A stretch of DNA of 64,000 bases, from positions 65,730 to 129,729 of the forward strand of contig JACQUX010000009.1 of the NCBI GenBank assembly GCA_016210045.1, read 5' to 3'. The notes beneath the pieces were generated by a model that saw only the letters and a program-made list of their open reading frames with translations, had not been told where the DNA came from and searched no databases. Origin of the DNA: Deltaproteobacteria bacterium. Its GTDB lineage: Bacteria > UBA10199 > GCA-002796325 > JACPFF01. A program made the translations under genes and the position numbers. Of the stretch, positions 23,275 through 61,196 are shown piece by piece. Every line of letters begins with the position of its first letter. The first letter of the stretch is position 1.

Positions 23275-24618
23275 ATGAAATTAGAAGAGATTCTCTCTGA
23301 AGGCGAGGGGTATCGCCAGGAATTCAAAGAGGGGCTTGCCCGGATTGACCGCGCGATGGTCGGATTCGCGAACGCCGGCGGCGGAACCATTTATGTCGGC
23401 GTGCGTGACGACGGCACGATTCTCAAAACGCCGCTGAACAACCGATTGCGGGCGCAGATCGCAAATATCGCGGCGGAGTGCGATCCGGCCGTCCCGATTA
23501 CCATTGCCGCGATCGGGCCGATCGTGGCCGTGTCAGTCCCGGAGGGAGAAGACAAGCCGTACAGTTGCAAAGATGGATTTTTTCTCCGCAACGGCGCGAC
23601 GACACAAAAGCTGACCCGCCAAGAGATGCTGGAATTCGTGGTGCGCGTCAATCGCGTGCAGTTCGATCGCCTGATCGCCGCCAGTGTCATCTACCCTCGG
23701 GACGTCGCGAAGGCCGCAGTACGGCGGTTTGTCGCGGAGGCCTCGTTGGAGACCGTGCTAGCCGACGTCGGCCAGGAACAATTTCTCCAATCGCTCGGGG
23801 TGGCACAGCGGCAACGTGGGCGGCTGTTGCTCAATCATGCCGGCGTGCTCTTTTTCGCCAAGCATCCCCAGTTGGTGATTCCCCACGCCACGGCCGGATT
23901 CACGCGTTATCAAGGCGTGGATAAAACGACCGTCGTGGAACGGAAACTCTATCGTGGGACGCTCATCGAACAAATTATGGAGCTGCTGCGAGATCTGCAA
24001 CGCGCTATTCCCACCGGCTACGGATTCGATCGGGAACTGCGGCGCCAGGACTTGCCGCACTATCCGTTAGTCGCAGTGCGGGAGGCGGTGCTCAACGCCG
24101 TGATGCATCGTGACTACTTCGAAAACGGCGCGGAGATCAGCGTCGATCTCTATGCCGATCGTCTCGAGATCACGAATCCCGGCGAATTGCTCCCGGTACT
24201 TTCGTTGGAAACCTTGGGACAGCGATCGCTGCGCCGCAATCCGTTGATCGGCGATCTCTTGTATCGCTGTGGATGGGTGGAGAAACTCGGTTCCGGAATC
24301 CAGCGAATGCGACGCCTGATGGACGAGTGGCGATTGAAGCCGCCGTTCTTCACGTCCGGTGGCGGCTTTTTTTCGGTGACCCTCTTCGGCCCCAAGACGA
24401 TGATCGACGTTACGGCCTTGCCGCAGTTGGCGGAGCGCGAGCGACAATTCCTTGCCGAGCAAAATCGGATCGACGAGCCGTTCGCCTCTCGTGTCTATCA
24501 ATCCCGCTTCGCCGTCACGTTGCGCACTGCACAAAAAGACCTGACCCATTTAGTCCAAACCGGCCACCTCACGCGCGAAGGCAACGGCAAAAACGCACGC
24601 TATCGGTTTCGGTCGTAA
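23275..24618 (+). CDS. AlbA_2 (Schlafen-like) putative DNA-binding domain + HATPase_c_4 protein (RecG-C-terminal-like regulator family)
   Basis: N-terminal EFK...GFANAGGGTIYVGV; C-terminal REAVLNAVMHRDY...LEITNPG. Confidence 0.75.
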   Translation: MKLEEILSEGEGYRQEFKEGLARIDRAMVGFANAGGGTIYVGVRDDGTILKTPLNNRLRAQIANIAAECDPAVPITIAAIGPIVAVSVPEGEDKPYSCKDGFFLRNGATTQKLTRQEMLEFVVRVNRVQFDRLIAASVIYPRDVAKAAVRRFVAEASLETVLADVGQEQFLQSLGVAQRQRGRLLLNHAGVLFFAKHPQLVIPHATAGFTRYQGVDKTTVVERKLYRGTLIEQIMELLRDLQRAIPTGYGFDRELRRQDLPHYPLVAVREAVLNAVMHRDYFENGAEISVDLYADRLEITNPGELLPVLSLETLGQRSLRRNPLIGDLLYRCGWVEKLGSGIQRMRRLMDEWRLKPPFFTSGGGFFSVTLFGPKTMIDVTALPQLAERERQFLAEQNRIDEPFASRVYQSRFAVTLRTAQKDLTHLVQTGHLTREGNGKNARYRFRS

Positions 24619-37503: not shown

Positions 37504-38670
37504 TCAATCCGGCGCGGCAGTGGCGAGGGCGAGCAGGCGCGGCAGTGACATCGCGGCGCGCGCCGTGCAAGGGCTCAGCGAGAGGGCGGTTGCGGCGAGT
37601 CGGTGAATGAAGGCGGTCGAGCCGTCGGTGTCACGATTGTAATGCGCGAGTGTCTGTTCGTAAGCCAGCGCGAGCAAAGGATGCTCGGGATGTGCGCGGT
37701 GGGCGGCGTAGCTGTGCTCGAGCGCTTGTGAGTCGTGTTCATCCAGCATCAGCGCCAATGTGTACTCGATGTCGCCGAGCGGGGCGGGGCGGCACGGTCG
37801 GGCCAAGTCGAAGTACGTGGATGGCTGGCCGAGCGACCATGTGTTGGCGACGGCGAACATCGCGCCGGTGTCCAGATCGTTGTCGGCCAGCGGCGCGGTC
37901 ATCGGATAGAGGGCAAAAAAGACGTTCAGTGCGGACGGCATCGCGATGCCGCGGAATGGCCATTGGATCAACGCGGCGACCATGCCGATTCGTGCGACGT
38001 TGCGGGCGAGCGCGGCGGTCTGCGGAGTCCAGGGCACGGTGAGCGCGCTCCACGGCTCCGCGTATTGGTGCACGATATGCGTGAGCAAATAATCTTGCAG
38101 CAACGCATCCATCGGCGATTGTTGATGGACCCGCCGTTCCGTCCCGCAGGCCAAACGCGCCGCGTTTCGCACGATATGGCGGCACGTACTGGCTTCCGCA
38201 AAAGAAGGGGTGAGAATACGGGTGAGGAGATAAAGCCCTCCCGCTACTAAGACGTAATCGGCCGGTTCGAGTCGCGAGACGCCTGTGTTGTCAGCGAGGA
38301 GTCCGAAGGCCCACAACGTCTTTCGCAGATGGCGCGCCTGTAATACTGACGAGTCGCCGTCGCGCACGGCGAGGTGGGCGATGGCCAGCGAGTTGCATGC
38401 GGTGCGAAGCCGCATCGGGGTTTCGGGCCGTCGCCCAACGATCTCCAACTTATGCAGGAGATTGAGTTCCCAATCGGCTAATGGCACGCTGCCGTGATCC
38501 GGTGGACTCCCCGGCGGAGCCGCGCCGCGACCTGCGGGCGACGACGCCCCGCCTCGGCCGGATTTGTTGGACGCGCGGTCGCCGCAGACCAGTCGGTGCC
38601 CCGGTGCGTGTGGGGTCCCCGGAAGAACGCAATGCGGAGGGCGAGCGCCGCTGGTGATGAATCGCGCCAT
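37504..38670 (-). CDS. Hypothetical protein (start uncertain; possibly internal at 38415)
   Basis: ORF only; the N-terminal 85 aa is Pro/Gly/Arg-rich and may be untranslated. Confidence 0.35.
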   Translation of the reverse strand: MARFITSGARPPHCVLPGTPHAPGHRLVCGDRASNKSGRGGASSPAGRGAAPPGSPPDHGSVPLADWELNLLHKLEIVGRRPETPMRLRTACNSLAIAHLAVRDGDSSVLQARHLRKTLWAFGLLADNTGVSRLEPADYVLVAGGLYLLTRILTPSFAEASTCRHIVRNAARLACGTERRVHQQSPMDALLQDYLLTHIVHQYAEPWSALTVPWTPQTAALARNVARIGMVAALIQWPFRGIAMPSALNVFFALYPMTAPLADNDLDTGAMFAVANTWSLGQPSTYFDLARPCRPAPLGDIEYTLALMLDEHDSQALEHSYAAHRAHPEHPLLALAYEQTLAHYNRDTDGSTAFIHRLAATALSLSPCTARAAMSLPRLLALATAAPD

Positions 38671-38772
38671 GGTCGGGTCGGTTGCTCCTTACATCACTTG
38701 TCGGCCGGCGGCGGAAAAAAGTTGCGTGTCTCAACGTGTGGACAAAGCCAAGCCCCCCAAATACATCCGAAT

Positions 38773-38827
38773 GGGGACAGGTACCTTCGAAGGTGCGCCA
38801 AATGGGCATCGCATGGTACCTGTCCCC
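38773..38827. repeat. REP hairpin copy 4, inside the conserved leader of giant paralog A
   Basis: GGGGACAGGTACC...GGTACCTGTCCCC seen directly. Confidence 0.85.
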
Positions 38828-38904
38828 ACTGGGATGCAGTTGGGGGCGCAACTTTCTACGCGCGCTGCCGATGAACGGAGGCGAAGGGGTCCAAGGGAAC
38901 GAGC

Positions 38905-41613
38905 ATGCGGCGAGTGGGTTCACATGGGTTGGGAGTGCATCCGCGTATGGCAGCGCGACCGGGTGCGGTGCGGCAGGCGGACGCGGTGTATGACCACGCG
39001 CTGCGGACTGGGGGCACGGTCACGGAGGCGTGGCGCGCGGTGCGGGAGGGGCAGCATCAGATCTGCTTCGTCACTGCGGGGGATGACCCCGAGGCGGACG
39101 TCGCGGCAATGGCCACAGCGGGCACGAGTGCCGCACCGCTCACGTGGCCGCATCTCCTCGATGCGAGCGGGATTGGGAATGCGTTGGCCCAGTTAGCAGG
39201 GCGAGATGCGCAATCGGTGCAGCAATCGGTGCGTTTGGACTTGCGTCCGAAGCAAGACACTGCGGCCGTGTTGCGTGCGTTCCAGGTCGCCGCGACGACC
39301 AGTGCCAAAGTGGGGGATACGCGCGGAGCATGGCAGGCGGTCGTGGAATTGTACGATCATCAGCATACGCTGCTCGTGCGTTACGTCCCGGCAGCGGTGG
39401 ACCAACCGCCCCGCTTCGAATTCCCGTTGACCGCGACGACGCAGCTGGGAAAGGCGCTCCGCGACTTCGTGCGCGGACGGGCGGAGCCACTCGGCGCTGC
39501 ATACAGCGCGGAACGGATCGAGATCCTGTTGGCGGTCGAGTGCAGCGCGTTGCGCGAGCATGCGCGCCAGCAACTGCAGGAGGCCGCAACAGCAGTACTC
39601 GAACAATGCTGCGCCGCCGGATGTCAGAATGTTGTGATTCGAGACGCGACTGCAACGATGACTGCGTTGCGCGATGGTAGAATGGTTGGGCCGAGCGGAG
39701 CCCCTGTGGTTGTAGAGACGGCAGTATCTGCTGTTCCCCCGCCGACCACACCATCTGCCTCGCCGGCCTCGCTCGACCGTCAACGGATGGAAATCGCGCG
39801 TCTGCTCGATGCAAACGATCCGCCGTGGCCTGTGCCGACTCGTTTGCCCGTGCCGCTCACAGCGCGGGAACGGTGGCTCGCATACGGCGAGCCGGAGGAG
39901 TTTACCGTACCGCAAGCAGCCACGAGCGTGGCCGCAGTGGTGGGCACGATAACGGCTCGCGCGCGTACTGCCACGCGTCCGTTGAAGATCGTTTTCCCTT
40001 GTGTGTCGACGCAGGCGCTCCAGATATTATTATTAGTCAAAAGTCCGGTGCCGATCCTGATCCAGGACGGATCGAAAGTCGAGTATTGCCGATATCCGGA
40101 TCGGGGCGATGTCTTGGGCGGCATCGACGTGGCCGATATTGGAGAACATCTCCACCTGACCATTTTGGCAATCGAGGCGTTGGCTACTACAAAAACAGCT
40201 GAACTGTTGCAACTGTTCCCGCTCTCGATTACGCTGACCCCGTCGCTGCTCGCGCCGACCCGCGCGCAACAGGAGTGGGCCGAGGCGATGGTCGCACGAC
40301 TGGCGTTGGCTGGCTGGGGTCGAGTCGTGGTGCGGACGGACGCCGGCCAGGTGCTGGCGGCCGGGTATCACCCCATCGCAATGCCCGCCGCCTTCTGGCC
40401 CGAGCCTCTCTTTCAACGGGTCGACCCGGTCGATCCTGTCGTGGATGCAGGTGACGCGATCTTGGTTGACGGCGAGCGGATCGGGATCGAGGCGCTGCGT
40501 CGTCTGGTCGCTGCGCCGGCACGACCGATTGAGGTCTATTACACAGACCCTGAATTCCCTTCCGAAGTCGCAGCCATGTTCCCGGAATTGGAAGCGGCGC
40601 TGAGTGACGATGGGGATGTGTTGGTCAGCTTTTCTACCCCAGTGCGCCAAGTGGCCTTCGGGCGCTCGGCGATTATTCAACGCTACGCGACGCTGGCATG
40701 GGTGGTGCTGGATGCCGTCGGCGTGAAACTCAGTGCGCCCGAGGCGGTGCGTGTGGCGGAGTCGTGTCTCACGAATTTCGGGATCGAATCGTTGTCGGCA
40801 CGTGGGCGGGAACTCTACTTCCAAGGTGTGCGGGGTTCCGTGGCGCAGCTGCAACAACAGCGACGGGACTTTGGTTTTGCCGTTCCATCCTTTGCGGCGC
40901 TGGCCGGGGCGCTGCGCGAGGCCTATTACGCGCTTCGTTTCGGAGATGGCCGGAGCGCACGCGAACTTTCCGTAACCCTCGATTTGACGGCCGTGTCGTA
41001 TGGCTTGTTCCCGCATGTGCATCACAACGATCCGGACAAGCGCTTTCCCGCGTTTGAGCGGGCGTTGTCGAACCCACAGCCCAGCGCGGTTCCGCCAGTA
41101 GGGTTGCTCTCGTTGTTGGAACAATTCCCGCGACTCCTGCAACTGGCCGCGCGAACGTTGCAAGGCACGTGGCAGCTGCTGTTGCAGGAGGCGATTGTCG
41201 ATCCGCCGAAATACGTCCGCCGCTTTGCGGGGAGGGTCTCGCGGCGCGGGACGATCGCGCTCGACAACCCGAGTGCGGCCGACGAGGCGATCCGCATCGC
41301 GCTGCTGGCACTCGCACTGCAAGAAATTCCAAACGCCACTGCACGGCAAGTCGCGCGGGCGTATCGCGCGGTGAGCGTAATCGCAGTGCCGCAGCAGAGC
41401 ACACCCGCCGAGTTGGCCCGACCGCTCCGCGCGGCGCATCATCCGTGGCACGCGGCGTGGGCAGTGGCGCGCGCGGTGTTGACCGAACCTTCGTCATCGG
41501 GCGCCAGAGGGCTTTATCTTAGTGGAGTGCTGATCCGCGCCGATCTCGATCCAGTCACCGCCGCGTTACTGGACCAACTGCTCCCGCCGCCTGCTCTACG
41601 GCGCAAGGGGTAG
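38905..41613 (+). CDS. Giant modular protein paralog A (902 aa), uncharacterised family
   Basis: N-terminal 300 aa is about 75% identical to paralog B; shares repeated modules (xxLxxAGWxxVVVRTDAGQVLAA and PxRQVAFG) with the 1695- and 3114-aa ORFs. Confidence 0.6.
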   Translation: MRRVGSHGLGVHPRMAARPGAVRQADAVYDHALRTGGTVTEAWRAVREGQHQICFVTAGDDPEADVAAMATAGTSAAPLTWPHLLDASGIGNALAQLAGRDAQSVQQSVRLDLRPKQDTAAVLRAFQVAATTSAKVGDTRGAWQAVVELYDHQHTLLVRYVPAAVDQPPRFEFPLTATTQLGKALRDFVRGRAEPLGAAYSAERIEILLAVECSALREHARQQLQEAATAVLEQCCAAGCQNVVIRDATATMTALRDGRMVGPSGAPVVVETAVSAVPPPTTPSASPASLDRQRMEIARLLDANDPPWPVPTRLPVPLTARERWLAYGEPEEFTVPQAATSVAAVVGTITARARTATRPLKIVFPCVSTQALQILLLVKSPVPILIQDGSKVEYCRYPDRGDVLGGIDVADIGEHLHLTILAIEALATTKTAELLQLFPLSITLTPSLLAPTRAQQEWAEAMVARLALAGWGRVVVRTDAGQVLAAGYHPIAMPAAFWPEPLFQRVDPVDPVVDAGDAILVDGERIGIEALRRLVAAPARPIEVYYTDPEFPSEVAAMFPELEAALSDDGDVLVSFSTPVRQVAFGRSAIIQRYATLAWVVLDAVGVKLSAPEAVRVAESCLTNFGIESLSARGRELYFQGVRGSVAQLQQQRRDFGFAVPSFAALAGALREAYYALRFGDGRSARELSVTLDLTAVSYGLFPHVHHNDPDKRFPAFERALSNPQPSAVPPVGLLSLLEQFPRLLQLAARTLQGTWQLLLQEAIVDPPKYVRRFAGRVSRRGTIALDNPSAADEAIRIALLALALQEIPNATARQVARAYRAVSVIAVPQQSTPAELARPLRAAHHPWHAAWAVARAVLTEPSSSGARGLYLSGVLIRADLDPVTAALLDQLLPPPALRRKG

Positions 41614-41639
41614 TGTCTTCATTGATCACGGCGCACTAT

Positions 41640-41917
41640 TTACAACGACTTCAGATAGCGTCGTACGTCGTCGTGATTGCCAATGCGGTGGAGCACGGCA
41701 GTTTTGTCGTCGAGTAGTAAGATCAGCCGCAAATCGCGGCCGCAGCGGGCCTCGAAGATGCCGCTGGGTGCAATTTGCGCAATCCGAGCCCCGCGTGTTG
41801 ATGCGGCTGGCCGAAGGCGGCCGGCAGCAGCAGAATGGCGTCAAAGAGCTGTTGTCGTTGGTTCGCAGAGAGTTGGCGAACGTCTCGTTGGAATGATTCG
41901 GTGAACAGGATTTGCAT
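41640..41917 (-). pseudogene. RelE/ParE-family toxin disrupted by a single frameshift near 41745
   Basis: N-terminal MQILFTESFQRDVRQLSANQRQQLFDAIL...GLGLRKL in one frame; C-terminal GIFEARCGRDLRLILLLDDKTAVLHRIGNHDDVRRYL in the -1 frame. Confidence 0.6.
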
Positions 41918-41928
41918 ATAGAGAACGG

Positions 41929-42264
41929 CTAGCGGATTTTTTGAAGTGCGGCCGCGGCGGCCTTTGCCGAGCGGAAGGCCTTTTTGGGACCGGCCGCAGC
42001 CTCGGTCCAGAGTCGTTTGGCCTGTCCGTCGGTTAGTGCGGGCGCAACATCGAGATCTGCCTCCGTGAGCGGGCGGATCGTCGCGACGATTTTGGAATGG
42101 CGCAACAAGACGACATCTTCTCCGGCGATCGCCGCGTCGACCAACTGATTCAACTTCGCCTTGGCCTCTTGGAGCGCAGTGAAGTACTGGAGATTGGCGA
42201 CAAAGCCAGCGGCGAAGGTCGCCGCAGACTTGTATATGGTCGAAATTGTTGAATGAAATGTCAT
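41929..42264 (-). CDS. Phd/YefM-family antitoxin
   Basis: ...LNQLVDAAIAGEDVVLLRHSKIVATIRPL; immediately upstream of the RelE-like remnant. Confidence 0.65.
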   Translation of the reverse strand: MTFHSTISTIYKSAATFAAGFVANLQYFTALQEAKAKLNQLVDAAIAGEDVVLLRHSKIVATIRPLTEADLDVAPALTDGQAKRLWTEAAAGPKKAFRSAKAAAAALQKIR

Positions 42265-42337
42265 AGGCGGTCAATTGAAAGTTTGATTTTTAATTGTCAC
42301 AGTGTGACGCCCAGTCCATCTCCTCAACTCCATCCTA

Positions 42338-42394
42338 GGGGGACAGGTACCGTCAAATGTGCGCCAAATGGGCATCGCATGGTACCTGTCCCCC
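42338..42394. repeat. REP hairpin copy 5, inside the conserved leader of giant paralog B
   Basis: CCTAGGGGGACAGGTACC...GGTACCTGTCCCCCTAGG seen directly. Confidence 0.85.
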
Positions 42395-42468
42395 TAGGAT
42401 GTACTGGGAACGCAACTTTTGGCGGGTGTGGCCGATGAAGAGAGGCGAAGGGATCTCAGGGAACGAGC

Positions 42469-45400
42469 ATGCGACGCGTCGGTTCACATGGTTTGGGAGT
42501 GCATTCGCGTGTGGGAGCGCGTCCGGGCGCGGTGCGGCATGCGGATGCGGTGTATGACCACGCGCTGCGGACTGGCGGCACGGTCGCCGATGCGTGGCGC
42601 GCAGTGCGGGAGGGGCAGCATCGGATCTGCTTCGTCACTGCGGCGGGGGAGGACCCCGGGGCGGAGGCCGCTGCGCTGGCCTCTGCGGGCAGGGTCTCGG
42701 CGCCCCTCACGTGGTCGGAGTCGCTCGGCGCAACGGGGATTGGCAATGCACTGATCCAGCTCGCCGCGCGTGAACCCGATGCGGCGCAACGGCCGGTACG
42801 GCTCACGTTGCGACCGAATCCCGGCGACGTAGTGCCGGCATTTTTCCAAGCCGTGACGACGAGCGCCAAACTCGGTGACACGCGCGGGGTGTGGCAAGCG
42901 GTCGTGGAGCTGTACGATCATCAGCGTGCATTAGTGGTTCGCTACGGTCCGGCCGTTGCGGATCAACCGCGCCGCTTTGAATTCCCGCTGACCGCGACGA
43001 CGCAAGTGGCGAAGGCCTTGCGCGACTTGGTGCGCAATCGGGTGGTGCCGCTCGGCGCCGCATACGGCGCGGAACGGGTCGAGATCCATTTGGCAGTGAC
43101 GCTCGACGCGTTGCGCGAACATTCGCGGAAACAATTGACAACTGCGGCGACCGAGGCGCTCGAACGATGTCGCGCTGCCGGATGGCGCGAGGTCGTGATC
43201 CGGACGCTGCAGGAAGTCGTCGCGGCGTTACAACAGGGTGTCGTGGTTGCGAACACGGGACGTGCGCCGCATCCGAGCGGCACGGCCGTTGGGCAGGTCG
43301 ACGCTCCGGCGTCGATGCATGCGATAGTCGCGTTGATGAATCGAGCAGAGCTCGATCCCTGCTCCCTCCCGCTCCTGCCGCGTTGGGCTGTGGCACTGCC
43401 CATGGAGGGCTTCGCCCCGCCGCTGCCGGTGGAGACTCGCATCCCACGAGGCCCTTCACTGACGGCAACGGATGTGGCGCGCGAGTTGTTATCGGCCACG
43501 CCAGCCGGGGAGGGATGGACGGCTGCGCTGCTCCAGTCGACACTGCAGCAGCAGGCGCGGGATCGGCGTCGTGTCTATGCGCTGCTGCGGCCCTTCGCCG
43601 TGCCTCCGTTGCAGTTACTGGCCACGGTGGAGAGCGATGCCTCGTTCTGGTTGCTGGCGACGGACGGGATGTATCTGCGACATGTCGATGCGGCCGGACA
43701 GTTACGAGGCTATCAATATTGCACCGACGCCGACCGGGCCGCGCTCGTCGTGGAGGAATTATTGGCGATGGCTGCAGCGCCGGAATTTGAGTGTTTGCGA
43801 CAGACCCCGTTCGAATTGCAAATTGCGACCCGCGGCGTCCCCGCCGATCGGCACCTACAGCAGTGGGCGCAGTCTGTGGCCGCGTGGCTCCGCGACGCGG
43901 GCTACGAGCACGTCATCATCACGGCAGAACGAGGCCCGATTTTGGCCGCGACCGATATGCGGTTCGCAGAGGCCGCGACCGATGAGCCCGCCCTCTTGGC
44001 ATCGCCGCCGACCGATGCCGTGGAACTCGTGATGCCATCGGCCGCTGCCGCCGTGCGCGAGGCATGGGACGCGCTCCCGACGCGTCTGCCGCCGGCCGGG
44101 GCGTGCGTGATCGACGGTAGTGCGGATACCGCAGCCATGGTCTCGTTTTGGCTATTCGTACACGGGCTTTGGAGCGCCGCGAATCCGCGCCGTGGAGACG
44201 TGTTCTTGCGAGTCAACGGCCGCATCGTGGCGCACGCATTGTTCGATACGGCGAGCGGCGCGCCGTTGGGGCTGGAGATCGACGGCGCTGCCGTCACGGT
44301 AGCACAACTTCGTACGGTGTTGATCACTGACGAGGAGTTAGAGGGCGGGAAATCCCGATTGATCTTTGCCCCGCTTTTTGCGCCGGTCGAGATTCGCTAT
44401 CGCACGCCGACGCTTCCGGCCGGTGTGGCAGCCCTCTTCCCGTTGTTGGAGGAGAGCTATCATGACATGGGGTTTGCGGCGCTCGTCTTTTCCACGCCGC
44501 TGCGCCAATTCGAATTCGGCACCGCGGCCAGTATCGGACGATGGACGCATTGGCTGACCACAATGGCGGCGGCCTTCGATATCCCACTCCAACCCAACGA
44601 AGCGCGCAGCGTGGCCGAATATTTTTTGTGGCCGTTTGGCATCAAGCCGCTACTCCCGGCCGTCGCAACCATGCTCGGCGCGGATCGGGGTCGGATTTCT
44701 CGAAATGCGGAAGGCTATGGCACTCCACTGCCCGGCAGCGTCGTGGAGAGCTGCCGGCGGGCATTGGCGGAGCTGCGGCTGCTCCAAGTCGCGGCGCGGA
44801 GGCAAATTCGCGTCGTGTCGCTGGGTGGCACGGACTTGCCCGGATGGGTCGCGCAGCAAATAAAAACTGCGGAGGCGTTCGATGCCGCGCTCATGACGGC
44901 TCCTGACGACCCACGCAAATTGCCGTTTCTGCTGCTCTGGACGTTGGGCTTGATCCCCGATTCCCGATTTAGTCGACTCAGCCCGTTATTGCAAACGGTC
45001 TGGGATGCTGTGGTCAAGGGCATGGCTGATCCACGGTCGTATCTCCGCCTCTTTACCTTGATTTGGATGGTGAACACGGGAAGCGGGAAGGCAAAGGCCA
45101 AAGGTCGAAGACGGCTCGACCTGCCCGAGGCCGGACGCGTCGAGGTCATTCGCTTGCAACTGATCGCACTGGTGTTGGAGCTGGCGGACCGCGCCGTGGC
45201 CCCGGAGATCATCCGAGGACTGTATCAATCGATTCATCTGTTGCCGGTGCCGCTCGAGCTGGATAGTACGGCACCTCGTTATCCGCTCGCGTCCTCCCAG
45301 CACCCGTATGGAGAGCTCTTTACCACGCTGCAGCAAATGCTGCCGCGACTCGAACTCGCTGCGCAAGTCGCAGCGACCGTTGACACCGAGACCTTGTTGG

Positions 45401-47556
45401 CCGAGACTGATCAGCCCGCGTTGCCGGTCACGACGGCGTTGTCACTGCTTCCTACGATGGCTGCGCAGTTGTTGCACGCAGGTCTGGCGACGCCGGTCGA
45501 TGTCGGCGTCAATCGGACGCCGCTGAGCGATCGGGCCTGGCGCGCGACGGCTGCGCGCGTGCAACAGCGCTTGCGGGTCTTGGTTCCACCGACGGGCAAC
45601 GGCGCGGTCGTTACGCTGCCGTGTGCCTCGCGACAATTGTTCGCCGTGCTGGACGGACTCGATGTTTCGTACCCGCTCCTGTTGCAGATGCCAGGTGCGA
45701 TGTCGCTCCATCGTGCGGTCGATCCGGCCGGGCGGGTCAGCGGTCTCGAGTTCGTCTGCGCACTGGACGCCATCGGCATCGTGGCTCGCATGTTACTCGA
45801 ACACGCCGATATGGCGGTGCAAACGGGAGTGGCCCTGCGCGGCGTTCCAATCACGCTGACGCTGAGCACGACCCGCACGCGCCTGTCCCGTGCGCTGCAG
45901 CGGCGCATGGAAGCGGGACTGCGGCAATTACGGGACTTAGGCTTCCCGCATGTCGTCGTGCGGACCAGGGACGGCAATGTGCTTGCGGCCACGGATGCGT
46001 TGCCGGCGCCGGATGCCGTAGATGCAGAGCCGGCGGCCCATGCCCCGCCCGCCGAGCTGATTGGGATCGCGGCGGAAGGGCGCGCAGTGATTGCCGGACG
46101 TACTATGGTCACGACGTCGTTGGAACCGATCGAGGCCTGGCGCCGCGGGGACTGCGAGGCGGTGTTGTTGGACTGTACGACGGAACATGGGGCCCTCAGC
46201 GTACTCGAAGATCTGTTTGGCCAATACGAGTACCACTCCGAGCCGGTCGGTACCCCGCGCGGCGACGCCTTTATTCGCGTGGCGGGCCAGATTGTGGCCC
46301 ATGTGTCCGTGGATCCGCAACGGCGGGCGGTGCTGCGTGTGTGGTTAAATGGTGCCGTGATCGACGCGACGCGGTTGGTGTGGTGGGTTTTGCCACCCGC
46401 TGAGCAAGACAACGTGGGCGGCACAAGCCGCGGAGAAAAAATATATGCCGCCTATCCCGTGGAGATCCACATTCCGACATTGCAATTGCCGTCGCTCGTC
46501 GCAGAGGCGCTCCCTGCGTTCGAACAAGAATTTCGCGACCGACTGATTCCTGGGATCGTATTACGCACGCCGCTGGAAGAATTTGCGTTTGGGCATGCGG
46601 CCACGTTGGCCCGCTGGGCCTCGATATTCGTGGCCACGGCGGAGCCGCTGCAGATGGAATTTGACGGGGCTCTCACTCGAGACCTGTGCGTCGCGGATTG
46701 GCTGGCGCTCTACGGTGTTGGGGTATCGGGTTCTGGAGAGCTGCCATCGGCCGGGACCGATCGAGAGACGCTCCTGTATCGCCGCCACGAGCGGGGCTAT
46801 GCCCTCCCGCGGCCGGAGTTGGTCACCGATCCGCTGATAGCTTGGATTTGGGCCGAGAGTCTGCAGGGGTGGCTGCAGCGGATCGGGACGCCGGTGACGA
46901 CGGCGTCATTAGTCGATCTCGCAAGGCTGGGCGGTATCCTGACGGCCGCACAGGGGCGCAGGCGTGAAACGCCGACGCCCGAGACCGTGCGGCGCGAGCT
47001 CCCGGCGCCGCAAGCGGGCCCGGTGCCGCCACTCGGGCTGCTGCTCACGCAGGCCGGAATCGAACGGCTGCCCGCCCCGGACCCCGACCTCTTCCTGGCC
47101 GTCTGGGACGCGATGCGCGTGGGGCACCTCGACCAGCGCACGTGGGCTGCACAGTTCGTGGTCGAAGACCTCCAACAACTCACGTTCTCCGAGGCCGCAC
47201 GGCAGACCGCGCTGCGGATGCGGCTGCTCTGCTTTGTCGTGGAACATGACCAGCTGGACGAGCCGCCAGCGGAACTGCTGCGCCGTCTGTATGGCGCGAT
47301 CGCCACGCTCCCGCTCCCGGTCCGCGTGGAGGCGGGTACGATGCGTCGCCCGATGACAGACCCCGAGCATCCGTACTACGCCCCGGTCCATGCGATGCGC
47401 ACGCTGATCGCGGCATGGCGTGCGGAAGCGGCACAAGCCGCACCCGCCGCTGTGTCTCCACCGGCCGTACGCCTGTCATTGGGTGGTCTGTTGATCTGGT
47501 CGGACCTGGATCTGGAAGCGGAAGTGGTGGAGCGATTACTGCGGGAACGGGAGTGA
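42469..47556 (+). CDS. Giant modular protein paralog B (1695 aa) with internal module duplications
   Basis: Shares its N-terminus with paralog A; contains three LRDAGY-x-VVVRT-x-G-x-VLAA modules and two RQFEFG/EEFAFG modules. Confidence 0.6.
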   Translation: MRRVGSHGLGVHSRVGARPGAVRHADAVYDHALRTGGTVADAWRAVREGQHRICFVTAAGEDPGAEAAALASAGRVSAPLTWSESLGATGIGNALIQLAAREPDAAQRPVRLTLRPNPGDVVPAFFQAVTTSAKLGDTRGVWQAVVELYDHQRALVVRYGPAVADQPRRFEFPLTATTQVAKALRDLVRNRVVPLGAAYGAERVEIHLAVTLDALREHSRKQLTTAATEALERCRAAGWREVVIRTLQEVVAALQQGVVVANTGRAPHPSGTAVGQVDAPASMHAIVALMNRAELDPCSLPLLPRWAVALPMEGFAPPLPVETRIPRGPSLTATDVARELLSATPAGEGWTAALLQSTLQQQARDRRRVYALLRPFAVPPLQLLATVESDASFWLLATDGMYLRHVDAAGQLRGYQYCTDADRAALVVEELLAMAAAPEFECLRQTPFELQIATRGVPADRHLQQWAQSVAAWLRDAGYEHVIITAERGPILAATDMRFAEAATDEPALLASPPTDAVELVMPSAAAAVREAWDALPTRLPPAGACVIDGSADTAAMVSFWLFVHGLWSAANPRRGDVFLRVNGRIVAHALFDTASGAPLGLEIDGAAVTVAQLRTVLITDEELEGGKSRLIFAPLFAPVEIRYRTPTLPAGVAALFPLLEESYHDMGFAALVFSTPLRQFEFGTAASIGRWTHWLTTMAAAFDIPLQPNEARSVAEYFLWPFGIKPLLPAVATMLGADRGRISRNAEGYGTPLPGSVVESCRRALAELRLLQVAARRQIRVVSLGGTDLPGWVAQQIKTAEAFDAALMTAPDDPRKLPFLLLWTLGLIPDSRFSRLSPLLQTVWDAVVKGMADPRSYLRLFTLIWMVNTGSGKAKAKGRRRLDLPEAGRVEVIRLQLIALVLELADRAVAPEIIRGLYQSIHLLPVPLELDSTAPRYPLASSQHPYGELFTTLQQMLPRLELAAQVAATVDTETLLAETDQPALPVTTALSLLPTMAAQLLHAGLATPVDVGVNRTPLSDRAWRATAARVQQRLRVLVPPTGNGAVVTLPCASRQLFAVLDGLDVSYPLLLQMPGAMSLHRAVDPAGRVSGLEFVCALDAIGIVARMLLEHADMAVQTGVALRGVPITLTLSTTRTRLSRALQRRMEAGLRQLRDLGFPHVVVRTRDGNVLAATDALPAPDAVDAEPAAHAPPAELIGIAAEGRAVIAGRTMVTTSLEPIEAWRRGDCEAVLLDCTTEHGALSVLEDLFGQYEYHSEPVGTPRGDAFIRVAGQIVAHVSVDPQRRAVLRVWLNGAVIDATRLVWWVLPPAEQDNVGGTSRGEKIYAAYPVEIHIPTLQLPSLVAEALPAFEQEFRDRLIPGIVLRTPLEEFAFGHAATLARWASIFVATAEPLQMEFDGALTRDLCVADWLALYGVGVSGSGELPSAGTDRETLLYRRHERGYALPRPELVTDPLIAWIWAESLQGWLQRIGTPVTTASLVDLARLGGILTAAQGRRRETPTPETVRRELPAPQAGPVPPLGLLLTQAGIERLPAPDPDLFLAVWDAMRVGHLDQRTWAAQFVVEDLQQLTFSEAARQTALRMRLLCFVVEHDQLDEPPAELLRRLYGAIATLPLPVRVEAGTMRRPMTDPEHPYYAPVHAMRTLIAAWRAEAAQAAPAAVSPPAVRLSLGGLLIWSDLDLEAEVVERLLRERE

Positions 47557-47648
47557 GTGATGATTGCTGACCGACATTGCCAAAACGACATCCGATGTCA
47601 AATTGGGAAAGGCTTGTCTAAAATAACATCCGATGCTATTTTGAGCAT

Positions 47649-48866
47649 ATGCCGCATGAACGGCGCCGCGACGCGATCGATAATGTGCGTCGCATGCTCA
47701 AATATTCTCCGCTGGTCGGAATCCTGGGGCATCGGCAAGTGGGGAAGACGACGCTCCTCTCGCGCTTGGTGAAGCGCTATGTCACCTTTGACGATGCGGC
47801 CGAACGGGCTGCCGCCGCAGCGGACGCAGCCGCATATTTGCGGCGCCAAGCGTCCGCCGGCTGTGTGGGACTCGATGAATGCCAATTCGTGCCGGCGCTC
47901 TTTCCGGCGTTGAAAGAGTGGGTGCGTTCGCATCCGCGACCCGGTCAATTTCTGTTAAGCGGCTCGGTCCGGTTTACGAGTCGGCATGCCATCCGCGAAT
48001 CGCTGACTGGCCGCCTCGTCACCCAGGAACTGCTGCCGTTCACCATCGGAGAAATGGCGCAAGAGCCGTTGGCCGGCGGACTGCTGCGGGTGATCGGCCG
48101 GTCTTCTCTCGATCAGATCGGCACGCAGTGGGTGATGCCGCGTGCGCTGTGGCAGCGCCGCACTCGGGATATTGCGCTCTTTATAGAACGGGGCGGTTTG
48201 CCGGGCATTTGCATGATGCGCAATGCGGTGATGCGGCAGACCAAAATCGGGGCACAATTGCAAACGTTGTTGGATCGAGATCTGCGCCTGATTGTGCCCA
48301 CTTCGTTATCGTATCAAACGGTATACGACGTGGCCGCGTATGTCGCGACCCATGTGGGGCAACCGATCAACTGGTCGGATATGCAGCGGGCCGTGCATGT
48401 CACGCCGCCGACATTGAAGAAATTACTCTATGCGCTGGAAGCGATTTTTATTGTGCGAACCGTGCCGATCGAAGGATCGTCGAGCGGGCAGGTTTATTAT
48501 TTTGAAGATGTGGCGGAATGGCAGTCCCTGTGTGGCGGCCACGTGCCGCAGCCATGGCTCCTCGCGCAGTTGATTTTTCACCACGCGCGCGTGCAGTGGA
48601 TCTATCAACTCGAGCGCACTGCGGCCTTCTTTCAATATCGGACGCGGGGTGGCGCGCTAGTGCCGGTGTGTATCCGCAGTCCCGAAGGCGTGGTGGGGCT
48701 CTTGCCGATCGCCGCCGCGGAGCCGAATCGTTCCGAAGTCGCCATCGCGGCAAGTTTTCTGAAAACCTATGCGCAGGGCAAGCTGCTCTATCTGACCGAA
48801 GCAACCGCAGTGCCCCGAGGCAGCAGTCGCACCGCCATTCTCCCGCTGGCCGCGATTACGTTCTAA
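47649..48866 (+). CDS. AAA+ ATPase with DUF4143-type C-terminal domain (COG1373 family)
   Basis: Walker A GHRQVGKTTLL, Walker B GLDECQ; architecture typical of AAA_14+DUF4143. Confidence 0.8.
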   Translation: MPHERRRDAIDNVRRMLKYSPLVGILGHRQVGKTTLLSRLVKRYVTFDDAAERAAAAADAAAYLRRQASAGCVGLDECQFVPALFPALKEWVRSHPRPGQFLLSGSVRFTSRHAIRESLTGRLVTQELLPFTIGEMAQEPLAGGLLRVIGRSSLDQIGTQWVMPRALWQRRTRDIALFIERGGLPGICMMRNAVMRQTKIGAQLQTLLDRDLRLIVPTSLSYQTVYDVAAYVATHVGQPINWSDMQRAVHVTPPTLKKLLYALEAIFIVRTVPIEGSSSGQVYYFEDVAEWQSLCGGHVPQPWLLAQLIFHHARVQWIYQLERTAAFFQYRTRGGALVPVCIRSPEGVVGLLPIAAAEPNRSEVAIAASFLKTYAQGKLLYLTEATAVPRGSSRTAILPLAAITF

Positions 48867-48904
48867 AGGGATCTCGAAGCATGAGCGCGTCTGTGCACCG
48901 CTTG

Positions 48905-48940
48905 CGGTCCGCATTTTTTTAGCAACCTTTCTGCAGCGGG
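48905..48940 (+). terminator. Possible intrinsic terminator (imperfect GC hairpin followed by a run of 7 T)
   Basis: CACCGCTTGCGGTCCGC then ATTTTTTT, unusual in this GC-rich DNA; the stem is weak. Confidence 0.3.
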
Positions 48941-48958
48941 CGCCGATATAAGAGCGCG

Positions 48959-51900
48959 ATGACGCGTCCTATTGGAAAAGGGCCTGGTCTGGGTGGTGCA
49001 CTGCCGCCCGGACTCACGCGCGGTCTGGCGCGTACGCCGACACCGTTGCGCGGGCCGCTCGGGAGTGGGATTGGCGGACGCCAACCGCTTGGGGCTGGGA
49101 TTGGGACCGGATCCGGTCGAGGCGAGCGTTCGCCGTTGTCCTCGCACGGCGACGGGCCATTCGGGATGCCAAGCCGCGCATATCGTTTTTTGCTTCCTGG
49201 CGCTCACCATTTTTCCGCACATCATCTCGCCATCGAGTGCGCTAGCGGGCGGAAAGGTCCGCCGGATGGATCCGTCGGGAGTGGGAGTGGAAGCAGTAGT
49301 GATGCGCCGCAGGTCACGCGCGAGCCATCGCTTCGTCATGGTAAAGCGATCAAGGCCGGTGGGATTGTCGCCGCGCTCAATGCGTTGGCCGATCAAGATG
49401 CGAGTCGGACACGTGCCGTCATCGTGCGGCTCAAACCGCAGGCCTTGAGCGGACCTGAACAATGGGCCGTGTTGTTGGCGGAACTCGGCAGGGCTGTCTG
49501 GCACGGGACGGTGACGATTCTCGACGCCGAGAATCATCCGATCGTGCGCCGCGCGGCCCGTCCCGATGCGCGGCCGGCGCCATTCATTTTCGCATTGCAT
49601 CGCGAGAAAACGCACGCGGCACAATGGGAACGCCTGTGTGCGATATTGATGGACCCCGCAGTGGTGCGCGCCGTCGGCGCGACGCCGATCGTATTGCAAT
49701 ATGGATTTGTTCTGGAGTCGGCGGATGACGCCATGCATGCCCATGCCCGCGATGCAGTGGGGACGCTGGTTTCGAGTGGTTACGTGCAGGTGACGGCGGC
49801 GAATGCGGAAGGGGCCACGCTGCTGCGAGTTCAGCCGTGGATGATCTATGCACAACCGGTGCCTCTCGCGGTTGCTGCACCCGAACGCCATCGTTATCCG
49901 GAGGCGGTGGGGCGAGTGTTGCGGAGCGAGGAAGATGACGGCTCCGCGGAGTCGCCGCTTCCGGATCAACCCCATCGGGTCTTGGATGAACGCGGCGCGA
50001 GGGAGTACGAGGTGGCACAAGTGCGCGCGCTGTTGGAGCCAATTGATCCCGCCGTTCCAGTCGAGCTGACGTGTCCGCGCTCTTCACAACATCTCTATCC
50101 GCCCGCGCCTTTCTTAGGGATGCGTCGCCAGGCTGCCGTGACACTGGATGCGCGGGAATCGCCAAACGGATTTGGTGTGCATCGGATGGTATTGCACTTC
50201 GATCCGGCGCACGAGGGTGAGTTAGTGCGTGCCGACGTGACAGTGGCATTTGATGAATTACTCGAACAATCGGAACATCTAAAATTATCTCACTTAGATC
50301 CCAGTGCACGTACTTATCATTCCCTGGCCGTCGGCGCGCCGCCGGTGCCGGTCGTGATTAAGATTGTGAGTCGGCCGTCGTTGTCGTTGCAAGCGGTGTG
50401 GTCTGCGGCGCAGCTCTATTGCCGGCGGGCGCGGCAAGCGCGGATGTCGGATGTGACGATCGTCTACGGCGATCGCGTCATTACCGGCACCATCCCGGGG
50501 CGTATCTGGCGCAGCGGGGTGCCTCAACTGCCGGCCGTGGCGGCGGCTGCACCGTCGACTGATTCGGCGGATGTTGCCGCAACGGCGGCTGCCGAACACG
50601 TGCCGCCGGTCGCGGCGAGCGAAGGCCTGTCCGCAGATGCCGATGCGGAGCCACAATCCGGGGACGGCGCGTCGTTACTTCCGCCGCCTCCGCCGCCCCT
50701 ACCGCCCGACGATGGTGGACCGGCGTCGCAACCGGAACCGCCGCGCGGTACTCCCGAAGTGCCTCGAGCCGTGCCGGTGACCACGGCCATTCCGCAACCT
50801 CCGCTGCGCACGGCGGTCATTGCGCAGCGCGGGATGCCGGATCCGATCACGATGCCGGAAGCCGTCCAAGAGGGCGGATTGGCGGCAGTCGTCGTGTGGC
50901 TGCAAGTGCAGACGGTGCGGCCGCAAGGTGTCATCACGATGTGGGCGCGGCGGACGGACGCCAACCTAGCACTACTGGCGGCCACTGCGGATCGCGGGAT
51001 GCCGGTTACACTGATCGATCCGATCACAGCGGGCTATTTTCATCACGAACCGTCGATCGGATTCGACGTGGAAGTGAATCCGGATCGACTCGGCCATGTG
51101 GTGCGCGCGCTCTGCGCGGCTGCGGACGGAGACTTCGCTCCACTGCGTACGGATCCGCTGATGTTGACGTTGGCGCGGGTCGACGACCTGCCGGAGGCGG
51201 CGTTGCAACAATGGGTGACGCGTGCAGTCGCGCGGCTCCGCGACGCCGGATATGCCCAAGTGGTCGTGCGGACGGCGAGTGGCGCGGTGTTGGCGGCGAG
51301 TGATGCAATCACCGCAGTGATACCGGAGTCGAGTGACGATCCCTGGACTACCAACGGTGACGCTACAGATTCCACAACTCTGCAGACCATGATTGACGGA
51401 GATCTACGTAGTTCCCTCCCAGGCACGAGACTTATCCAATTCCACGGTACGACCGTGCCGGAGTGGTTGCGTGCCCGATTCGCCGCATACGAAACGGCGT
51501 TTGATGTGGCGGGATCCCAGAGGGGGCTGCTCATTGAAACCGATACGGAGCGCTACGAGTTTGGTTGTTCGGAACGGCTTCGACTCTGGACGTATCAGGT
51601 GCAGGCTGTGGCCCAACGGCACGGTCGGACCCTCACGAAAGCCGAAGCTGAACTGGTCGCCGAGGTCTTGTTGGCGCGCTATTGCATCGTTCCGCAATCG
51701 CCCGCCGCCGTCGCCGCAGCCAATCATTATCGCACCAGTCCGCTGGATGCCGCCGCGATGCAATCCTTTCGGGCGGAGGCCTTCCACTTTGCGACGCCGC
51801 ATGTAGTGATGGCGACCCCGGTAATCCTGCGCCTGACTGCCGATCTCGTGCCGGCCGTTGCGACGCAAGATGCAGCCGCAGAACCGGCACCACCAACGCC

Positions 51901-54900
51901 TGACACCGTGTTGCCACCGCCAGCGCCTACTGCTGATGATGCCACGGCCGCGTCCACCCCCAGTCACCAGCCACTAGTCACCAGCCACCCCTCCGCAGTC
52001 ACCAGCCCCCAGCCCCCAGTCACCCCTCCGCAGCCACTTCCGCTTGTGCAAACCCTTTGGGCCCGCATCGGCGCGACGGCACGGCCGGAACTTGCGTCGT
52101 TACTGGAACGCCTCTGGGTGATGGAACAGGCACGGCCCGGCGTGCCGTCGTGGGAGATCGCGGCCGACGGGGTGTTGACCGTGGCGCAAGCCGCCCAAGC
52201 GGTGCGCGTCAGCATCGCCGCAGCGACCGCGCACGATTGTGCGATGACCGATCCCGCGAGCCTGCGCTGGTTGCTCGATGATGTGATGCCGTCGCCGGAG
52301 ATGTTCGGCGATCCGGCGACCATGGGGATGGACCAGTGGCCGACGATATGTATTACGCCGGCGGATTTTCGCGATTTGGTTGAGGCGGCTGTTAGCGCGG
52401 TCAAGGCCGTGTTGGCGGCGCCGCCGCCGGCAGATGCAGACGCGGCGCCTGGTCCCACGGCCCCCGCGCCAGATCCAACCGCGGCCGCGTCGGCCCCAAG
52501 CGCCGCGGCCTCGTCGCACTCCCACGGTTTCCAGCGCCGCGCACTGGTCCGTTATCGTCTCGGTATATTGCGGACCATTCAGCCGCCGGTCGTCGACGCG
52601 TCCGTGTTGACGGCGCTCGAACGACTGCCTCCCGATATCGCGTTCAGTCTGCTGAGTCACAACGACGCCGCCATGATGGCCGGCTTCCTGCGCGACCAAC
52701 TTCCGCGTCCCGATCGGGACGGGGTCCCGCGCCTGGTCAAGCTGTTGTGGGCGTATTTAGGCTGTTACCAAACCGGCTATGCCGCCACGTTGGCAAAATG
52801 GTGGCGGACATTTGTGGCCGAGCAGATCGCACGCGATGCCACGCTGCAAGCCCGGCTGGAACAGCTCCGAACCTACGAGGCGGCCGATACGGTCAGCTTC
52901 AACGATCTCGATCCGGAATTGTTGCACGCTGCCGTGATGGTCGGCTTCACGGTGGCTGTGACCGCGGCGTTGCATCGCACCGGCGATACCAATCTGCTCC
53001 ATATTCAGACCGCGTTGGAATCGATTCGCGACGTGAACTCCGCCCGCACCTGGGAGTCCGTGGCGGGCTTGTCGTTCGATGCGGTGCTGGCATCCGTCTC
53101 CGCGCTGGAACCGCCCGAAGAAAGCGATCGCGAGGCGTTCATCACGCTCTCCGGCGATTGGCCGCAACCGTTCCTCGTGACCGACGCCGCGCAGACGGCC
53201 CAACAGCGCCTCACTGCCAATGCCCCACGGATCAAGGCGCTGGTCGAAGCGATGGTCGCGGGCCATCCGGTGTACCACGGCGATATTCGTGCGCTTGATA
53301 TCACGAAGCCGCCCGAGGAATCGGTGGCGCCGATCCAGCGGCGTTTCAAAACGAGTGATGGGCGACAAAAAATCGGGAATCGCCATTTGACGCTGGCCGC
53401 GCTGGCGGAAATCTACTGGGACTTGGTTACCGCGCCTGGCTGTCCCGGCGCGCATCTGCCGGAGCTGTTCGAGCCGACGCTCGCGGTGAAGCTCGATTGT
53501 CTCGTGGAACACCTCTTTGATCAGATCCGGTATGGCCGCACCCGCTTTACCCGGATGAGCCGCGCGGCCTTTGCGGCCAAGGCGAAGGAGTGGGACATTA
53601 ATCGACTCCTCCCGGTGTTGCGCGGCGACAGCAATGCCGTTGCCAAGTTGCTCGGGACCAAACTCTTCTCCGATCACTGGCGGATCCTCTCGCCATTGGA
53701 ACGCAAACGGTTCGTCGAAGGGTTTGCCCAGTTGCCGCTGGCCCAAGGCCCCGGGCCGACCGGCCGGCCAGCGCGCACGCGTGTGAGCCTGCACGAATTG
53801 GCGGAACAAGAGCGGGTCTTGATCGACTTCCTGCGCGCGCGGAACCTGCGTCTACAAGGACTTGGCGGCGAGGATATTTTTCATCTCTATGAAATTTACC
53901 GTTTCGTCACCCACGTCCGTTTCGGCCGCGACTATTCCACAGCGATGCACGAGCTCGCGTATCGATTAGGCGAACGACCCGACCCGAATCCGGATCCGGC
54001 CGCACGGATCACGGCGGAGACCGATCCGGTGCTGTTGGCCGTGTTGCGCCAGGCCTACAATTATTATCAGCGCCGGGAACAATTCGGTGCGCTGCCGGCG
54101 CGACTCCGGCCCGAGACGTTGAACTTGGCCCAATGGATCGGCGCGCAGTGGTTGACGGAGCGCAGTCCGGTCCCGACCGACGATCCGCAATTCCCGATCG
54201 ATCCGCATGTGAAATTCCTGCTCGACGGCGCTCGTCTTGGCAAGACGCGCCAAATGTTCGCCGCGTGGCAACAGCTCATCGCGCGGGGCGAGGTTGAGGC
54301 CGATGGCGCCGTCCTCTATGTGACGCGTTCCACGAACATGGACGAAGTCGCGAAGGAGTTGCAACTGATCTGCAACGACGGCCAGGCCCCGTCGGTCGGG
54401 ATGTTGCGCTGGGAAGAGGGACAGAAGGGCGTTGCGGTGACGGAAGTGGCCGGCAAACAAGTCCGGATCGTGCATTATCAGAATTTGTGGCGTCTCAATC
54501 CGTACGAATGGGAACGCGAGATCGCGAAGCGGCGGGCCCGAGCCGCGAAATTGCGTGCTTCCGTGGCGGATGCTGATCCGCGAGAGGCGAAGGGCGCACG
54601 TGCGTCGCAAGAGATTGCTGAACTCGATGCGGTGATCGAGAAATTGGAAGCGCAATTGCCGGCGCTGCGCACGCAGTGGGAGCAATTGCACGCCAATGTC
54701 GCGGTCACGATCGTCGATGAGGCCCAAGAGGCCGAAAATCCTTCCGAGGAGGTCAAACAAGCCAACGGGGTGCGCGATGCGATTGCGCATGTGCGGGGTC
54801 GGCGCGCGGAGGTTGGCAAGTCGCCGATGCGGCTCTGGTGGGCCACAGCGAGTCTCTATAATAGCGATCCGGGACATATCCAATCGTTGCTCGAAACGAG

Positions 54901-61133: not shown

Positions 61134-61196
61134 GCAGGGGGACAGGTACCGTCGGATATAGGAAATATGCGGATTTGTCGGTACCTGTCCCCCTGC
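61134..61196. repeat. REP hairpin copy 6, immediately upstream of birA
   Basis: GCAGGGGGACAGGTACC...GGTACCTGTCCCCCTGC seen directly. Confidence 0.85.

Follow-up and report, generated by a model that had tools for sequence, protein, structure and literature searches.

A dispersed TIRYT-type hairpin beside a candidate family promoter in the shared leaders of two paralogous large-protein genes

Two paralogous genes, A and B, lie in the 64,000-nucleotide stretch of DNA analysed here (the window), and each is preceded by a homologous leader that begins with a hairpin. What appears to be a single 'conserved structured leader' resolves into three parts: a presumably mobile palindrome, a probable recent conversion patch and a short candidate promoter motif. 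We propose that a mobile hairpin of the TIRYT type stands beside the promoter of a gene family, that the two were homogenised by recent gene conversion between A and B, and that the hairpin is a passenger. We put the probability of this reading as a whole at about 0.7. Three observations carry it: a dispersed repeat family associated with a transposase, a mosaic of synonymous divergence (dS) along the two genes, and a motif that occurs exclusively upstream of four paralogs. The duplicated leader is real, and it is now largely explained by ordinary biology.

In the proposed course of events, the hairpin would be a non-autonomous dispersed repeat. The Y1/HuH transposase of ORF 3431–4120 presumably mobilises it, acting on single-stranded DNA. 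The repeat would have landed just upstream of the -35 element of a promoter that probably does not need it. This family-specific, ECF-like promoter would lie directly 3' of the hairpin and lead into a short 5' UTR rich in purines. A and B would have arisen by an old duplication, after which recent, patchy conversion would have copied the segment from the hairpin through approximately codon 75 from one paralog to the other. Hairpin, spacer and N-terminus would look 'duplicated together' because this segment was copied jointly. The features on which the argument draws are collected in Table 1.

Table 1. Positions of the genes, hairpin copies, motifs and low-divergence patches discussed in the text (window coordinates unless a contig is named)
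Feature	Position	Strand	Remarks
Gene A	38905–41613	+	902 aa; HY696_02450 in NCBI
Gene B	42469–47556	+	1695 aa; paralog of A; HY696_02465 in NCBI
3114-aa ORF	48959–58303	+	family member; module common with A and B
Y1 (HuH) tyrosine transposase ORF, IS200-like	3431–4120	+	229 aa; motifs THTH and YIELNP
Hairpin copy A	38755–38846		inverted dimer of the 13-mer GGGGACAGGTACC; cores 38773–38785 and 38815–38827; 29-nt interior
Hairpin copy B	42322–42410		cores 42339–42351 and 42381–42393; outer stem CATCCTAG/CTAGGATG perfect
Hairpin copy	863–917		between convergent genes; in a ~96-nt block near-identical to the block around 4132–4186
Hairpin copy	3260–3314		upstream of transposase ORF; core at 3260, complement 3302–3314
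Hairpin copy	4132–4186		12 nt 3' of transposase ORF, 12 nt past convergent SMC stop; core complement 4174–4186
Hairpin copy	61138–61192		divergent intergenic region
GCAACT-N13-GCCGAT upstream of A	38848–38872	+	2 nt past outermost stem of hairpin; ends 32 nt before ATG
GCAACT-N13-GCCGAT upstream of B	42412–42436	+	2 nt past outermost stem of hairpin
GCAACC-N14-GCCGAT upstream of 3114-aa ORF	48922–48947	+	ends 11 nt before ATG; no hairpin
GCAACT-N13-GCCGAT upstream of HY696_01100	Logan contig L124, 46–70		shared with A and B
Purine-rich stretch GGAGGCGAAGGGG...AAGGGAACGAGC before ATG of A	38877–38904	+	probably short 5' UTR with ribosome-binding site
Proposed recent gene-conversion patch in A	38773–39130	+	partner in B ~42339–42694; hairpin, candidate promoter, 5' UTR, codons 1–~75
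Second patch of low synonymous divergence, A codons 161–225	39385–39579	+	third-position identity 69% vs 35% downstream

Homologous leaders upstream of genes A and B

Divergent intergenic regions precede both genes (38671–38904 for A and 42265–42468 for B). Each contains the pattern GGGGACAGGTACC-N29-GGTACCTGTCCCC, at 38773–38827 and 42339–42393, respectively; the interiors agree at all but 3 of their 29 positions and have the loop GTGCGCCAAATGGGCATCGCAT in common. The first-pass annotation had described the hairpin by its cores and loop. Both are present, but the stem is longer, being extended by outer stems of the form CATCC.../...GGATG. In A this outer stem (CATCC at 38764–68, GGATG at 38832–36) is imperfect, and the outermost stem is CCCCAA/TTGGGG. 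RNA folding of 91-nt segments gave -57.5 kcal/mol for A and -56.6 kcal/mol for B, so that both leader hairpins are highly stable relative to dinucleotide shuffles (z = -8.1 and -9.3). The two also share a degenerate, decayed right inner arm together with the same loop, and the other four copies in the window lack both features. We take this shared derived state to mean that one of the two hairpins was copied from the other and that they did not insert independently.

The stretch GCCGATGAAnnGAGGCGAAGGGnTCnnAGGGAACGAGC-ATG is found in both leaders, and the pairwise alignment runs past the hairpin and through the ATG into the coding sequence. The annotation was thus right that the leaders upstream of both paralogs are homologous in hairpin, loop and this stretch, and that the duplication includes leader as well as coding sequence. 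By blastn, the homology extends over 38755–39647 versus 42322–43207 at 76% identity, with its 5' limit at the 5' edge of the hairpin. Nor is it confined to the palindrome: the 68 nt from hairpin to ATG align with a score of 58 against a null of 13.9 ± 2.3, a score reached in 0 of 2000 shuffles. Upstream of the hairpins (38671–38754 vs 42265–42321) no significant alignment was obtained (p = 0.69; 44% identity with many gaps). The homology, earlier placed in the 130 nt preceding each ATG, is real; it takes in only ~150 nt of each intergenic region, and the flanks toward the upstream genes are unrelated. Similarly, the paralogy of the two genes stands, although 'giant' was a generous term for proteins of 902 and 1695 aa.

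Both proteins are annotated in NCBI from codon 15 (ATG in A, GTG in B), which leaves 38905–38946 and 42469–42510 outside the annotated genes. Of the changes between the two genes in codons 1–14, four are synonymous and one is non-synonymous, and for this reason we favour the upstream ATG as the true start of A and B. The purine-rich stretch preceding the ATG of A is probably a short 5' UTR with a ribosome-binding site. A block of this leader, GAGG.CGAAGGGG, also precedes the annotated start of a third paralog, HY696_01100, the similarity to which reaches only p ~0.06. Further upstream, the palindrome GTCACAGTGTGAC (42297–42309) precedes hairpin B, and a looser one, TGTCTCAACGTGTGGACA (38728–38745), lies at the matching distance from hairpin A. 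These palindromes could serve as an operator for the divergent genes; the similarity between A and B here is not statistically significant.

A dispersed hairpin family

Six hairpins of this kind are present in the window, all of them intergenic and very stable, and two of the four copies away from A and B sit 3' of convergent genes. The core 12-mer has 13 matches in the window against 2.7 expected. Across the window copies the 13-bp core stems are invariant and the outer and inner stems vary, with five pairs showing compensatory changes.

A scan of one genome per species gave at least 120 loci with an exact match to the hairpin pattern. The matches listed come from Bacteroidota, Bacillota (including isolate Bacillaceae), Elusimicrobiota, Acidobacteriota, Planctomycetota, Alphaproteobacteria, Actinomycetota and others. 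Among them, the 13-mer GGGGACAGGTACC is identical across phyla, and the flanking outer and inner stems are lineage-specific, often in the arrangement X-core-X'...X-core'-X'. The same listed loci hold 81 further GGGGACAG 8-mers, 32 of which go on with GTACC, making the 13-mer the conserved unit. The cross-phylum 13-mer is present in genomes of isolates, is multi-copy, has stems specific to each lineage and adjoins a homologous gene; a sequencing adapter or assembly artefact was therefore rejected as its source. Occurrence of the hairpin in many phyla also led us to reject an ordinary species-specific REP.

Taken together, the hairpin is an inverted, REPIN-like dimer of a TIRYT-type repeat, one of a dispersed family whose putative mobilising enzyme is encoded in the same window. 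The earlier label 'REP' holds to the extent that this is a dispersed REP-like palindrome; the GT[AG]G foot is absent, and the element is a TIRYT-type dimer instead of a canonical REP.

Known resources returned little for the element. Rfam gave no match at the gathering threshold over the whole window, and an E-value scan of 38600–39000 gave only a spurious plant miRNA match. A full-text literature search for the core 12-mer retrieved only unrelated eukaryotic primers. Metagenome scans for the hairpin combined with the promoter motif, and for the loop specific to A and B, gave 0 matches each.

Several observations concern the surroundings of individual copies. Two near-identical blocks of ~96 nt (850–946 and 4119–4215) each hold a hairpin copy and the 3' end of a gene on the minus strand. 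Included in them are the stop codon and the four or five codons before it from each of two unrelated genes, a 754-aa ORF (930–3194) and the SMC gene (4199–7798), and the hairpin repeat appears to supply the 3' ends of both. Another copy of the GGGGACAGGTACC hairpin starts directly after the stop codon of HY696_01100 (Logan contig L124, 7027–7057). Logan (short-read) contigs from this organism break off within hairpins: L001 at its 5' end (window position 38801), L123, and L124 at its 3' end. Such ends fit a high-copy or palindromic repeat that breaks assemblies.

The transposase and its relation to TIRYT and REP/RAYT systems

The transposase ORF matches Pfam PF01797 (Y1_Tnp) over residues 29–138 (E 9.3e-11; 42.3 bits, cutoff 23). 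It also matches the NCBIfam model NF047646, 'REP-associated tyrosine transposase' (E 6e-13), at 49 bits, under the curated cutoff of 80. The tyrosine motif stands in the context ...GRYIELNPVAAG.... In the HuH motif, T-H-T-H, both histidines are kept and the leading Asn of NHVH/NH[YF]H is replaced by Thr. A C-terminal helix-turn-helix, a domain described as heterogeneous (PMC6006769), was not detected: with a cutoff of E <= 1e-3, Pfam matches stop at residue 138. The transposase has no sequence match in the PDB at E <= 0.01.

Cores of the GGGGACAG type, fitting GGGGWSAS, stand on both sides of the ORF in inverted arrangement. The stretch 3260–4186 has the layout of a complete 'TIRtron', a transposase ORF between two hairpin dimers of the kind scattered through the window. 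The association recurs elsewhere: in 7 of the loci listed, inverted cores adjoin or enclose a homologue of the transposase (26–33% identity).

Members of TnpAY1 subclass 2.1 carry a YIELNP or Y[IV]HLNP motif, are ~238 aa long and have been equated with TIRYT transposases (Quentin et al. 2018, PMC6006769). TIRYT genes are flanked by terminal inverted repeats sharing GGGG[AT][CG]A[CG] (Di Nocera et al. 2013, PMC3733652; PMC6006769). Dispersed families of moderate abundance, frequently dimeric, are described for some of the TIRYT repeats (PMC3733652), and no REP-like repeats were found for subclass 2.1 (PMC6006769). The system in our window resembles TIRYT/subclass 2.1 (Bertels' RAYT Group 1) in its Y1/HuH enzyme of ~230 aa with YIELNP, in flanking inverted repeats that start with GGGGACAG, in dispersed dimer copies and in a wide, patchy taxonomic range. 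On the other hand, whereas published families are moderately abundant, this one is abundant, with six copies within 64 kb, each of them a long hairpin dimer; a 13-mer, not the published 8-mer, is identical across phyla; and the enzyme has THTH instead of NH.H, with the C-terminal helix-turn-helix not detected.

With the REP/REPIN-RAYT systems of Enterobacteria and Pseudomonas it shares multi-copy extragenic palindromes whose inverted pairs form a hairpin, a Y1 gene (present once in this window) flanked by repeats, and an intergenic placement often just past stop codons. It differs from canonical REPs in its foot: the 5' GT[AG]G is absent, the feet of the six copies read CATC/CATT... and the conserved block starts with GGGG. 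Moreover, the middle of the stem is invariant here and the foot variable, and the transposase falls below the NCBIfam cutoff for RAYTs. Judged by these sequence features, the ORF at 3431–4120 is the probable mobiliser of the hairpin family and is akin to TIRYT / TnpAY1 subclass 2.1. The hairpin family itself is a member of the TIRYT/TIRtron kind, and stands out by its abundance, its strict dimer form and its cross-phylum invariant 13-mer. The window thereby offers an unusually clear TIRYT example, with transposase, flanking dimers and dispersed copies side by side. A 13-nt core that stays invariant while the transposases have diverged to ~30% identity points to an exact DNA determinant read by poorly studied enzymes.

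A promoter-like motif downstream of the hairpins

Immediately downstream of both hairpins lies the motif GCAAC-N14/15-GCCGAT, which was defined from A and B and only afterwards found at the 3114-aa ORF and at HY696_01100. On both strands of the window it has exactly three matches (0.28 expected), one each upstream of A, B and the 3114-aa ORF at a distance of 11–32 nt from the ATG. The 7-kb contig L124 has one (0.04 expected), upstream of HY696_01100. Taken alone, the HY696_01100 leader compares with those of A and B at p = 0.017–0.03 in a local-alignment test, which is modest. The two distant paralogs keep only the 11 bases of the motif, and neither the spacer nor the N-terminus. In the 3114-aa ORF the leader reads TTTTTTTA-GCAACC-N14-GCCGAT-N11-ATG, with a T-rich tract in the place of the hairpin.

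At all four genes the layout would be that of a -35 AAC followed by a T-tract (AACnTTT; GCAAC(T/C)(T/C)TT), a spacer of 16–17 nt (16 in A) and a -10 CGAT. ECF promoters have an 'AAC' -35, a -10 of CGT or CGAC, a T-tract proximal to the -35 and spacers of 14–17 nt (PMC5758882). The motif is thus similar to promoters of ECF (group 4) sigma factors, B. subtilis sigma X/W/M/V (PMC5758882), in AAC plus T-tract, in the 16–17 nt spacer and in a -10 that starts with CG(A/T). It differs in having CGAT as its -10 instead of CGTC, CGTA or CGAC, and no cognate sigma/anti-sigma gene was seen in the window. As in ECF regulons, one near-invariant motif is common to a few related genes. No ECF sigma gene and no protein with sigma-70 r2/r4 regions turned up in the window ORFs that were scanned. 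Scans of both leaders for sigma-70 promoters and intrinsic terminators found none on the gene strand, the simple sigma-70 scan being uninformative, and a sigma-54 reading of the motif was rejected since the spacing does not fit. ECF-like promoters as such are a textbook phenomenon.

From its architecture we infer that the motif serves the family as its own promoter or, failing that, binds a protein; the architecture also suggests the sigma class. The leader element under constraint appears to be this motif, 2 nt downstream of the hairpin. If it is a promoter, transcription would start near 38880, the 5' UTR would consist of the purine-rich ~25 nt before the ATG, and the hairpin would lie outside the mRNA. 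As far as motif architecture alone indicates, the hairpins of both A and B are probably outside the transcript. Occurrence upstream of only four family members (902, 1695, 3114 and 2282 aa) suggests a small dedicated regulon. GCAAC-N14/15-GCCGAT is offered as a candidate ECF-type regulon signature that connects four giant proteins, otherwise unannotatable, in an uncultured bacterium and could help to find their regulator.

The hairpin was taken at first pass as a cis-regulatory element. It might indeed be functional in the control region of the family. As a stem-loop in a long 5' UTR it could affect stability or translation; as DNA, it could form a cruciform or bind a protein, and so modulate the promoter or shield it from the divergent gene. 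Its stems are very stable, it ends within 2 nt of the -35-like element in both A and B, and it is the best-conserved part of the tract (52/55 positions vs 79% for the spacer). REPs are known to affect the expression of neighbouring genes in E. coli. Nevertheless, we consider a dedicated regulatory role unlikely. The same element occupies four unrelated intergenic sites, among them both flanks of the transposase gene and two positions 3' of convergent genes, and the core does not vary between copies or phyla, a conservation that belongs to the repeat family and not to the A/B locus. The motif common to the distant paralogs lies downstream of the hairpin, and the 3114-aa paralog has the motif without any hairpin, which would mean that the candidate promoter works without one. 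A structured cis-regulatory RNA is further disfavoured by the lack of any Rfam family match and by a structure that is not kept with the gene in this paralog.

The HY696_01100 leader adds a hint in favour of function. Its contig starts with TCCCC 40 nt before the motif, a possible remnant of a hairpin; this is 5 nt only. It may be the end of another hairpin copy, which would weaken the view of the hairpin as a mere passenger. The same leader contains a separate perfect 13-bp hairpin, CAGCATGGCCTGC-cggca-GCAGGCCATGCTG (L124, 117–147), between the motif and the annotated start.

Probable recent gene conversion between old paralogs

A and B are old paralogs. The proteins are 47% identical over the first ~500 aa and 21–29% identical past there, and the C-terminal module of A is repeated within B. 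dS between them is 0.14–0.31 in codons 1–80, >1 at ~80–160, ~0.4 at 163–222 and saturated thereafter, the saturation past codon ~80 marking the duplication as ancient. Third-position identity follows the same pattern, with 76% (57/75) in codons 1–75, 45% in codons 76–160, 69% in codons 161–225 and 35% in codons 226–520, where 31% is expected at random. The difference between codons 1–75 and codons 76–520 (181/430) is highly significant (Fisher p = 7e-8), as is the second patch in codons 161–225 (Fisher p = 7e-7). The latter suggests that conversion between A and B has been repeated and patchy.

Outside the hairpin, the spacer is identical at 46 of 58 positions (79%), compared with 76% at third positions of the adjacent codons. 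A recent conversion patch would explain the 'duplicated leader' because the identity of this non-coding spacer matches the neutral level of the codons next to it. The mosaic of dS is directly observed; conversion is the process that it suggests. Hairpin core and loop are identical at 52 of 55 positions. Because the core is the same in every hairpin copy, it offers no sequence difference from which to fix the 5' limit of the tract exactly. The outer stems match at only 12/18 and 12/19 positions, and each is still complementary to its own partner. That the 3' outer stem is 63% identical within the proposed tract may mean that the tract is interrupted or that the stem re-evolves to match its partner. 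Part of the low dS near the start codon could come from selection on the mRNA.

Gene conversion between tandem paralogs is a textbook phenomenon, known from mosaic dS in, for example, bacterial surface-protein and tuf/rrn paralogs. As in known cases, a short near-identical tract including synonymous and non-coding sites lies within otherwise saturated paralogs, with a second patch further on; in contrast to them, the tract here would take in a promoter and a mobile repeat, and ends at that repeat.

This last feature raises the question of whether the hairpin is itself a recombination hotspot, at which palindrome breaks, stalled forks or Y1 nicking start repair from the paralog and thereby cause the conversion tract, perhaps even the original duplication, the latter being an alternative raised in the first-pass annotation. 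Breaks are plausible both at long palindromes and at sites of HuH nicking, and an intact-looking transposase is encoded in the same window. Detectable homology between A and B begins at the 5' edge of the hairpin (38755/42322), with none upstream, and the lowest-dS tract starts there as well. However, a tract must stop where homology stops, so this coincidence is expected without any causal role. In addition, the second low-dS patch has no adjacent hairpin, none is present downstream of B, although unequal exchange between flanking repeats would predict one, and the original duplication is too old to reconstruct. We therefore regard a causal hotspot as quite unlikely, while a role of the hairpin as conversion boundary is possible. 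A related speculation, to which we likewise give long odds, is that the palindrome, as a break-prone or nickable hairpin at the -35 edge, seeds recurrent conversion and so keeps promoter and N-terminal module homogeneous among fast-diverging paralogs, or else that it serves the promoter as an upstream element. The possible third hairpin before HY696_01100 would fit such a recurrent hairpin–promoter association.

Finally, hairpin, leader and N-terminus might have stayed similar since a single duplication, without conversion, through strong purifying selection that includes synonymous and leader sites: the N-terminal 60 aa of A and B are ~88% identical and constrained (dN 0.06), and the promoter motif is the part of the leader common to distant paralogs, yet we find this highly improbable, as synonymous divergence is 5- to 10-fold lower exactly in this 5' segment, the spacer outside the motif has diverged to the same degree as third codon positions, and only the motif bases persist in the distant paralogs.

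An orphan family of large proteins and its neighbourhood

The fourth family member, HY696_01100 (2282 aa), is encoded in the same MAG on another contig. An exhaustive HMMER profile search for the family returned A, B, HY696_01100 from the same genome and one marginal match, and a search of 5.8 billion proteins with A returned A alone. A, B and the 3114-aa protein have no match in Pfam, NCBIfam or PADLOC.

The region 38905–58303 forms a cluster of orphan large proteins, homologues of A, B and the 3114-aa ORF being found only in the same MAG. Interleaved with the cluster are a small ORF with a weak match to Phd/YefM (41929–42264) and an AAA_14 ATPase (47649–48866) that matches the PADLOC candidate defence family PDC-S01. 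Elsewhere in the window, two more defence-like genes are present, an ATPase_2/DUF234 protein at 12646–14055 (PADLOC candidate PDC-S27) and a Schlafen AlbA_2/HATPase_c_4 protein at 23275–24618.
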